Assembly: GCA_031701365.1 (NCBI GenBank)
Contig: GCA_031701365.1_4118.1
DNA: 64,000 nt
Strand: one strand, 5' to 3'
Origin: Escherichia coli
GTDB taxonomy: Bacteria; Pseudomonadota; Gammaproteobacteria; Enterobacterales; Enterobacteriaceae
The notes beneath the pieces were generated by a model, which did not search any database, was not told where the DNA came from, and worked only from the letters and a program-made list of their open reading frames with translations. This document shows, in pieces, positions 3,110-3,180 of the stretch. The stretch's first letter is position 1; every line of letters starts with the position of its first letter. The position numbers were made by a program, and so were the translations under genes.

Positions 3110-3154
3110 AAATCCCTCCTTTATTCATTATACTATATTTAATACAAACAAGAA

Positions 3155-3175
3155 TGCCAGTACAGAGTACTGGCA
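3155..3175 (-). terminator. intergenic hairpin (terminator-like)
   Basis: TGCCAGTAC-AGA-GTACTGGCA perfect inverted repeat; T-rich tail on minus strand. Confidence 0.5.
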
Positions 3176-3180
3176 TAATG

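Follow-up and report, generated by a model that had tools for sequence, protein, structure and literature searches.

The window, by which we mean the whole 64-kb stretch of DNA that was analysed, matches an Asteriusvirus jumbo coliphage: over its first 12 kb it has 99% identity to Escherichia phage vB_Eco_slurp01 and 97-98% to PBECO4, SHEFM2K and others, which likewise belong to the Asteriusvirus jumbo coliphages. About ten tandem genes occupy the minus strand between positions 1 and 11661, the latter being the ATG of the first array gene, and each of them encodes the N-terminus MLPFGRMxKYGNI. All three array genes tested match Pfam RCC1 repeats and the PHROG family 'regulator of chromosome condensation', and eight RCC1-like proteins have been reported in the virion proteome of phAPEC6 (PMC7247149). 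A repeated unit of ~70 bases lies between these tandem genes. At seven junctions it comprises, in gene orientation, a hairpin, a T-tract, the string TTAAATA-N3-TATAAT, AAGGAGG and the ATG. A first-pass annotation had reported a hairpin cassette in seven spacers, and all seven are indeed present where it placed them; the pattern GCCAGT[AG]C-N0-6-G[TC]ACTGGC matches only at 761, 3156, 4369, 5622, 6886, 8106 and 9316 in the whole 64 kb. The features are as follows.

3110-3180, minus strand: focal cassette, the entire spacer from the upstream stop codon (3181-3183) to the next ATG (3107-3109)
3154-3176, minus strand: focal hairpin AUGCCAGUAC-UCU-GUACUGGCAU, 10 bp, -13.9 kcal/mol, beginning 4 nt past the stop codon
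3142-3153, minus strand: U-rich tail UCUUGUUUGUAU, adjoining the stem (UUUCUUAUUUGU in most other copies)
3136-3141, minus strand: TAAATA (within TTAAATA), proposed T4-type late promoter core
3127-3132, minus strand: TATAAT, preferably read as an A/T-rich initiation region, alternatively as a sigma70 -10
3115-3121, minus strand: Shine-Dalgarno site AAGGAGG, 5 nt before the ATG
3068-3109, minus strand: conserved 5' coding block MLPFGRMFKYGN..., which belongs to the repeated unit
715-786, minus strand: diverged cassette copy; hairpin 759-781 with one G.U pair, CCTAAATA at 743-750, GGAGG
4324-4394, minus strand: cassette copy; hairpin 4369-4387, TAAATA 4349-4354
5575-5648, minus strand: cassette copy; hairpin 5622-5641 with a 4-nt loop, TAAATA 5601-5606; the downstream gene is frameshifted
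6840-6910, minus strand: cassette copy; hairpin 6886-6904, TAAATA 6866-6871
8060-8130, minus strand: cassette copy; hairpin 8106-8124, TAAATA 8086-8091
9271-9340, minus strand: cassette copy; hairpin 9316-9334, TAAATA 9296-9301, TATAAC in place of TATAAT
1957-1985, minus strand: half cassette ATTAAATATAATATAAAGGAGGGAAT without hairpin; the stop codon of the upstream gene lies inside TTAAATA
10451-10463, minus strand: junction TAGGAGGGAAT with a Shine-Dalgarno site only, overlapping the stop codon; neither hairpin nor TAAATA
11662-11745, minus strand: first-gene promoter half GGTAAATATGATATAAC...AAAGGAGG, without a working hairpin
within 11662-11745, minus strand: degenerate CCAGTACTGAAAGG remnant, overlapping a divergent sigma70-like promoter on the plus strand (TTGACA-17-TACTAT, 11711-11739)

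The six junctions between 3110 and 9340 share one architecture. The stop codon is followed after 4-6 nt by (AT)GCCAGTAC, a loop of 3-4 nt and GTACTGGC(AT), then by TTTCTTATTTGTATTAAATATAGTATAAT(G/A, or C)AATAAAGGAGGGAAnnATG, so that the order after the stem is TTTCTTATTTGTA, TTAAATATAGTATAAT, GAATAAAGGAGGGAAnn and ATG. Loops of two or three nucleotides had been claimed; those of the seven hairpins, AGA, ACT, AGA, TTCA, AGA, TCT and CTT, are 3-4 nt long. The stem had been described as perfect and invariant, but the copy at 753-786 is diverged: its stem GCCAGTGC/GTACTGGC contains one G.U pair and its promoter part reads CCTAAATATAATAACGATTTACATTTGGAGG. Nor does the unit end at the ATG as had been proposed: conservation persists over the first ~40 nt of the coding sequence (MLPFGRMxKYGNI) and breaks down beyond them. 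The cassette is real and well above chance. Nine of the 11 window sites that match the 16-mer TTAAATATNNTATAAT with at most two mismatches are RCC1 junctions, and AAGGAGG occurs eight times in the array, once on the plus strand of the remaining window and at two minus-strand sites outside the array (30669 and 51312). A search of the whole window with Rfam at the gathering score gave no matches.

The remaining junctions are incomplete. Two of them had been taken to lack the cassette altogether and hence to join co-transcribed genes. This holds for 10451-10463, where the Shine-Dalgarno site alone is kept, overlapping the stop codon TAG; with neither hairpin nor TAAATA between them, the two genes would be co-transcribed. 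The junction at 1957-1985 likewise has no hairpin, and thus no terminator, but retains the promoter-like half ATTAAATATAATATAAAGGAGGGAATATG, with TAA of the upstream gene placed inside TTAAATA. An eighth promoter half, again without hairpin, lies upstream of the first array gene (GGTAAATATGATATAAC...AAAGGAGG, 11662-11700).

The idea that the hairpin is a terminator-type RNA element is supported by a terminator scan, by covariation and by a bias towards G.U pairs on the sense strand. All seven hairpins were called terminator-like on the minus (gene) strand; each begins 4-6 nt past a stop codon, has a hairpin-only energy between -11.2 and -13.9 kcal/mol and is followed by a T-rich tail, and each is present in both the minimum free energy and the centroid fold of its 101-nt context. 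The GenBank record of phage G17 (MK327931) annotates ARNold terminators (-10 to -12.8) on these hairpins, and that of Munch (MK268344) also annotates terminators on them; the terminator reading is therefore already public. Relatives display a compensatory series in the stem that leads from GGCCAGTAC/GTACTGGCC through GGTCAGTAC/GTACTGGCC, with a U.G pair, to GGTCAGTAC/GTACTGACC, and further compensatory stems are GGCTAGTAC/GTACTAGCC, TGACAGTAC/GTACTGTCA and ACCAGTAC/GTACTGGT. Computed over 23 distinct stems, 90% of cells are paired, five of nine pairs have changed on both sides and the covariation score was matched by none of 500 shuffles, in an alignment that favours structure since loops were replaced by a fixed linker and arms were picked for best pairing. 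Transition mismatches read on the gene strand are G.U in 22 cases and A.C in two (p = 3.6e-5), with a scoring that is symmetric for G.T and A.C, and the ratio is about 11 to 1 when shared ancestry is allowed for and independent events are counted. A hairpin formed by the sense RNA would be expected to show such an asymmetry; a duplex DNA site would not. Distant relatives in IMG/VR, which include GAP32 and were found with a degenerate DNA pattern for the RCC1-like N-terminus, carry unrelated hairpins at the same position before GGTAAATA, for instance AAGCTCAAC-TTAG-GTTGGGCTT with a T-tract. On this evidence, an intrinsic terminator that acts in the sense RNA is the best reading of the hairpin. 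Interruptions of the U-tract (UUUCUUAUUU, or UCUUGUUUG at 3142-3153) may make termination weak.

Two other roles for sequences in the spacer were considered and set aside. Sequestration of the Shine-Dalgarno site, by pairing of AAAGG with CCUUU of codons 3-4, is weak, appears in some folds and is not conserved in EJP2 or Munch, and an A/T-rich inverted repeat in ATTAAATATAGTATAAT is imperfect and of the kind expected in A/T-rich DNA. A peculiarity of the stem is that its inner part, AGTA/TACT, hardly varies (invariant in 21-23 of the 23 distinct stems) while the outer pairs covary, which is not something that a plain terminator requires.

Downstream of the hairpin, the cassette TATAAT had been noted to have no convincing -35, and this was borne out: the promoter scan reported no -35 hexamer at its threshold for any of the cassettes, and scan and sequence reading together led us to reject a sigma70 -35 in any register, for TATAAT as for TAAATA. 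An antisense promoter was rejected as well: although AGTACTGGCATAAT at 3166 repeats the spacer plus -10 found in four early promoters, AGAATG stands where the -35 would be, and the likeness is that of a shared word. The suggestion of a late-type promoter dependent on a phage factor keeps its support as to type, but its core is more likely TAAATA, 9 nt upstream, than TATAAT. TAAATA is invariant in the window-type copies, in EJP2, Munch, Kae01, Hallingskeid and GAP32, and in the other IMG/VR copies. The TATAAT-like hexamer, in contrast, is variable between lineages (TATAAT, TATAAC, TATGAT, TATATT, AATAAT, ATATTA, GATATT), at a spacing of 1-4 nt, and in Hallingskeid and the IMG/VR locus L010 it lies just 5 nt from the Shine-Dalgarno site, too close for the -10 of an mRNA that is to contain this site; with a start ~7 nt further on, part of the site would be lost.

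The distribution of TAAATA, which was computed directly, points in the same direction. The word stands in register at nine of the ten RCC1 gene starts in the window and is otherwise scarce: on both strands together there are 26 occurrences against 123 ± 11 expected under a second-order Markov model, a roughly fivefold depletion, and under the same model ATAAATA is found once against 41 expected and TATAAATA not at all against 12.6. RCC1 junctions account for nine of the 20 minus-strand TAAATA sites. The word is depleted in all relatives sampled, to 0.1-0.6 of expectation. In phAPEC6, (A/C/T/G)TAAATA occurs 25-50 nt upstream of the ATG at 24 late-gene regions, among them those of the major capsid protein, the scaffold/protease, sheath, neck and baseplate wedge proteins and other virion proteins verified by mass spectrometry. 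Two of the phAPEC6 genes, gp274c (CTAAATA-AAG-TATAAT) and gp276c (TTAAATA-CCTT-TATATT), have the layout of terminator, T-tract and word seen in the RCC1 cassette, as do gp244 and gp245. The base before TAAATA is T, G or C in the RCC1 copies and A in 16 of the 24 late promoters, and the RCC1 word scores 5-9 bits with a position weight matrix on which the late set spans 5-16, which places it at the low end. The first genes of arrays keep the promoter half and have no hairpin.

A candidate reader of this word is also encoded. The phAPEC6 protein gp237c, which is gp55-like, matches PHROG late sigma factor families, shows 25-30% identity to cyanophage gp55 and has homologs in 33 Escherichia jumbo-phage records; the Asteriusvirus genus also encodes an RpoD-like sigma factor. 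In the related phages CBB and GAP32, ATAAATA has been reported as a late motif, together with a gp55-like sigma (PMC5259590). A literature search found no transcriptome and no transcript 5' or 3' ends for this phage group. From the sequence evidence assembled here, the cassette promoter is probably of a late type that depends on a phage factor and has no -35.

We therefore favour, as the probable explanation, a composite unit of terminator, late promoter and ribosome-binding site that would make most RCC1-like genes separate late transcription units. A polymerase leaving one gene would transcribe the 8-10 bp hairpin 4-6 nt past the stop codon and then UUUCUUAUUU, and would terminate there, probably incompletely. 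The (T/G/C)TAAATA that lies 14 nt past the stem would serve this phage group as its late-promoter word, a relative of the TATAAATA of T4, and would be read without a -35 by the host core polymerase together with a phage gp55-like sigma. Transcription would start a few nucleotides downstream, inside the A/T-rich TATAAT, and yield a short leader with a strong AAAGGAGGG 5-6 nt before the ATG. Gene conversion or recombination would keep the block of ~115 bp that reaches from the hairpin to codon 13 almost the same in paralogs that are very old, and this block might double as a crossover point for the gain, loss and movement of whole genes between related phages.

The same spacer could be a host sigma70 promoter with TATAAT as its -10, helped by an extended -10 (TGn) or by the hairpin 3' arm serving as a weak -35; the T-tract would then be a spacer, the cassette a promoter-coupled terminator and the genes not specifically late. 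We regard this as unlikely, although several observations speak for it or for a dual use of the element. TATAAT is a perfect sigma70 -10 in five of the seven window copies, a true extended -10 (TGnTATAAT) occurs in first-gene promoters and in some cassette promoters (TGATATAAT, TGGTATAAT, TGTTATAAT), the scan reports CTGGCA-17-TATAGT at 3160-3132, and the stem ends of EJP2, Munch and Hallingskeid (CTGGTA, TGGCCT and TGGGCA) lie 17-18 nt from the hexamer; moreover, the early region of the same genome uses hairpins with TTGAC in the stem, then TGnTATAAT. However, the pseudo -35 agrees with the consensus at just 3-4 of six positions, and in window-type copies its spacing to TATAAT is 22 nt. It is also the hexamer, and not TAAATA, that changes in sequence and spacing from lineage to lineage, and with 7 nt between hexamer and GGAGG in the window, and 5 nt in Hallingskeid and L010, a start ~7 nt on would land on or within the Shine-Dalgarno site. 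That the RCC1-like proteins are virion components likewise fits poorly with genes that are not specifically late.

Improbable in our estimate is a single long transcript of the array made from the first promoter, on which the hairpins would serve in RNA processing or in stabilising 3' ends, TAAATA-TATAAT being conserved for some other reason. The interrupted U-tracts suggest weak termination, and relatives have a number of cassette-free junctions whose genes are clearly co-transcribed, as this arrangement would have it. Against it, hairpin and promoter-like word occur together, junctions without hairpin mostly have no word either, and first genes carry the word only; TAAATA is strongly avoided elsewhere in the window, and the layout of terminator plus word also precedes unrelated late genes. 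It is highly improbable, finally, that the palindrome acts as duplex DNA, offering a protein specific for the CAGTAC/GTACTG word a site for binding or recombination. The over-representation of AGTACT across the phage lineage (5-18-fold, in all reading frames and in non-coding DNA) and the near-invariance of the inner stem beside covarying outer pairs would suit such a site. Yet the loop length, and hence the spacing of the half-sites, ranges from 3 to 9 nt, nearly every mismatch is a G.U when read on the gene strand, the hairpins that distant relatives carry in this place are unrelated, and a U-tract always follows the hairpin.

The composite terminator and late promoter has its closest known analogue, as far as architecture goes, in the PeSL (promoter-early stem-loop) cassettes of T4-type phages (Arbiol et al. 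2010, PMC2839356; Comeau et al. 2014, PMC4122927). Both are small repeated intergenic units of a terminator stem-loop and a promoter in a variable region, both are similar from copy to copy within a genome, and at both the insertions, deletions and replacements that distinguish related phages break at the cassette. The promoter of a PeSL, however, is a sigma70 early promoter of consensus type, complete with -35, -10 and upstream A/T, whereas the RCC1 cassette has no -35 and a late-type word; the PeSL stem is GGGG...CCCC as opposed to CCAGTAC/GTACTGG; and PeSLs flank unrelated orphan genes, while the RCC1 unit takes in a strong ribosome-binding site as well as the first ~13 codons of a single paralogous family. 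Since the RCC1 cassette lacks the sigma70 early promoter that defines a PeSL, we do not class it as one. The T-even internal-protein (IP) loci (PMC2839356) resemble the array in another respect, in that a small, plastic locus joins a conserved upstream element and a conserved N-terminal coding segment to the strongly varying bodies of proteins packaged in the virion, but promoter type and proteins are different. That the RCC1 N-terminus (M-[LI]-P-F-x-R-..-Y-G-N) has a targeting role is only a guess.

With the T4 late promoter (TATAAATA, gp55) and the ATAAATA motif of the Rak2-like phages CBB and GAP32 (PMC5259590), the proposed cassette promoter shares the TAAATA core, the missing -35 and the A/T-rich sequence downstream, and these phages, too, encode a gp55-like sigma and place the motif upstream of virion genes; RCC1 copies differ in the base before TAAATA, which is T, G or C where the others have A. 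This phage group has no known gp33 or gp45 partners (PMC5259590). The hairpin resembles intrinsic (Rho-independent) terminators, such as those annotated in MK327931 and MK268344, in being a stem-loop with G+C pairs and a U-tract right after a stop codon, but its U-tract is interrupted and its stem measures just 8-10 bp. A promoter-coupled terminator takes its -35 from the stem and uses the T-tract as spacer, with the -10 immediately beyond it (Fletcher et al. 2026, bioRxiv 10.64898/2026.08.19.745784). The RCC1 cassette also combines a terminator and the next promoter in one short spacer, yet its stem ends 22 nt from TATAAT and the hexamer at the -35 position is TTTCTT. The terminators are annotated in public records already, and we take the composite cassette to be an ordinary variant of known phage regulatory cassettes that involves no new mechanism. 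Its use would lie in a testable expression map, with one terminator and one late promoter per gene, for the large and fast-changing family of virion-associated RCC1-like proteins of this jumbo-phage group, and in (N)TAAATA as a working late-promoter word for the annotation of Asteriusvirus genomes.

The first-pass annotation was silent on two further properties, the likeness of the cassettes within a genome and their place at the breakpoints of gene shuffling. The cassette occurs at 409 places in 43 phage records, which comprise Asteriusvirus, the Salmonella phages Munch, 7t3, SE_PL and PHA46, Klebsiella phage fENko-Kae01 and Erwinia phage Hallingskeid. The paralogs of the window have 25-33% amino-acid identity to one another, whereas the genes starting at 8059, 10450 and 11661 (win_8059, win_10450 and win_11661) have EJP2 orthologs with 80%, 84% and 74% identity, respectively; the paralogs must therefore long predate the split between the phage of the window and EJP2. 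With bodies so dissimilar and three paralogs with orthologs of their own, recent tandem duplication was rejected as the cause of the cassette likeness. Similarity between cassettes is 88-92% within the window and 76-97% within EJP2, against 71% between the orthologous pair win_8059 and EJP2_4939, where only the contrasts are used since global nucleotide identities are inflated for unrelated A/T-rich sequence (baseline ~0.63). As the cassettes are more alike within a genome than between an orthologous pair, they are homogenised within the genome, which is concerted evolution as read from these comparisons.

Gene order has changed around the cassettes as well. The gene win_11661 is the first of its array and has no hairpin, while its EJP2 ortholog, EJP2_8617, lies mid-array with a full cassette; in G17, an extra gene is found between the win_11661 ortholog and the divergent early region. 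In the window, the region upstream of 11661 looks like a chimera of a first-gene promoter and a cassette. Segments of high identity shared with G17, 121Q and phAPEC6 start ~35-45 nt inside the coding sequence and end just past the hairpin, with ends at 5539/6915, 6789/8132, 9225/11707 and similar positions. These computed positions suggest that differences in gene content between related phages break at the cassette edges, with the caveat that the evidence is partly built into the method, because segments of high identity are bound to end at conserved islands. Recombination or gene conversion between cassettes would extend the cassette-based gene shuffling described for T4-type early genes to a late-type cassette in a distant group.

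AGTACT, the basis of the RCC1 stem, is itself unusual. Its over-representation is 11.7-fold in the window and 5-18-fold in each of the sampled relatives, and holds for non-coding DNA as well as for every reading frame. A literature search on the CAGTACTG word found nothing relevant. One might speculate, with little expectation of being right, that a phage factor reading AGTACT in DNA or RNA couples termination or anti-termination with cassette-to-cassette recombination; if true, this would be a dedicated system for the rapid reshuffling of a virion-associated beta-propeller family.

A second cassette family is present in the early, plus-strand part of the window and in phAPEC6. In its hairpin, GGGTTGAC-TTCG-GTCAGCCC, the stem contains TTGAC, and a T-tract and TGnTATAAT come next, an arrangement that fits the definitions of both PeSLs and promoter-coupled terminators.

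The most conserved part of the RCC1-like family is its N-terminal peptide, M-[LI]-P-F-x-R-[MI]-x-x-Y-G-N, which lies within the following segment:
3071-3109 (example), minus strand, first 13 codons, as in every RCC1-like gene

Residues M1, P3, F4, R6 and Y10 are invariant in 18 RCC1-like proteins that are otherwise only about 20% identical. The peptide is kept even where the DNA differs, and it is therefore under selection at the protein level; it may take part in virion targeting or in closure of the propeller. One gene of the array (4395-5574, minus strand) is frameshifted, with the ATG at 5574 leading to a stop after ~50 codons and the long reading frame restarting at a GTG at 5471, and is either a pseudogene or the product of a sequencing error.

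The long Shine-Dalgarno sequence AAGGAGG occurs eight times on the minus strand of the RCC1 array (1961-11673), and in the remaining 52 kb only once on the plus strand and twice on the minus strand (30669, 51312). This near confinement suggests that the RCC1-like genes are tuned for strong translation. Hairpins of the intergenic RCC1 cassette carry their loops at these positions:
3164-3166, hairpin loop
4377-4379, hairpin loop
6894-6896, hairpin loop
8114-8116, hairpin loop
9324-9326, hairpin loop

Across the window and the related phage loci L001, L002 and L005, identical stems enclose loops that form reverse-complement pairs (AGA/TCT, ACT/AGT, CTTGA/TCAAG), a pattern that points to a loop inverted repeatedly inside a perfect palindrome and not to point mutation. 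A degenerate hairpin remnant 5' of the first RCC1 gene is overlapped by a consensus-like sigma70 promoter, TTGACA-17-TACTAT (11711-11739, plus strand), that serves the divergent early gene cluster.

Counted on both strands of the whole window, the proposed T4-type late promoter core TAAATA is strongly avoided (26 copies vs 123 expected), as are ATAAATA (1 vs 41) and TATAAATA (0 vs 12.6); TTGACA (58 vs 28) and TATAAT (177 vs 126) are enriched. The early region holds a second repeated terminator-promoter cassette, consisting of a hairpin, (A)GGGTTGAC-TTCG-GTCAGCCC(T), a T-tract and TGnTATAAT:
26053, 30094, 32687, plus strand, copies in the window
9303, 17759, 21004, 21186, 22527, 23615, 29112, 31292, minus strand, copies in L005

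Because the -35 element TTGAC lies inside the terminator stem, this cassette is a promoter-coupled terminator resembling the promoter-early stem-loop (PeSL) cassettes of T4-type phages.

The whole window contains 253 copies of the hexamer AGTACT vs 21.6 expected, an 11.7-fold excess, and CAGTACTG occurs 57 times vs 0.7 expected. Most of the remaining palindromic hexamers fall below expectation or do not occur at all. The AGTACT excess is seen in each of the three reading frames and also outside coding sequence. All Rak2-like relatives sampled (L003-L008, L014-L017, L025, L030) are enriched 5-18 times; an unrelated contig used for comparison showed no AGTACT enrichment. The same word is the common base of repeated early-promoter families:
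16000-35300, plus strand, AAAGTACTTGCA...GCGTATAAT, 14 copies
16000-35300, plus strand, TTGACA-N9-AGTACTGTATAAT, 11 copies
16000-35300, plus strand, AGTACTGGCATAAT, 5 copies
16000-35300, plus strand, TTCAGTACTGAA, a 12-bp palindrome, 7 copies

Among the five AGTACTGGCATAAT copies is one at 3166, antisense to the hairpin there. Two 4-kb bins (36001-40000 and 44001-48000) contain zero AGTACT, against a window mean of ~4 per kb, and may represent foreign or differently constrained segments.
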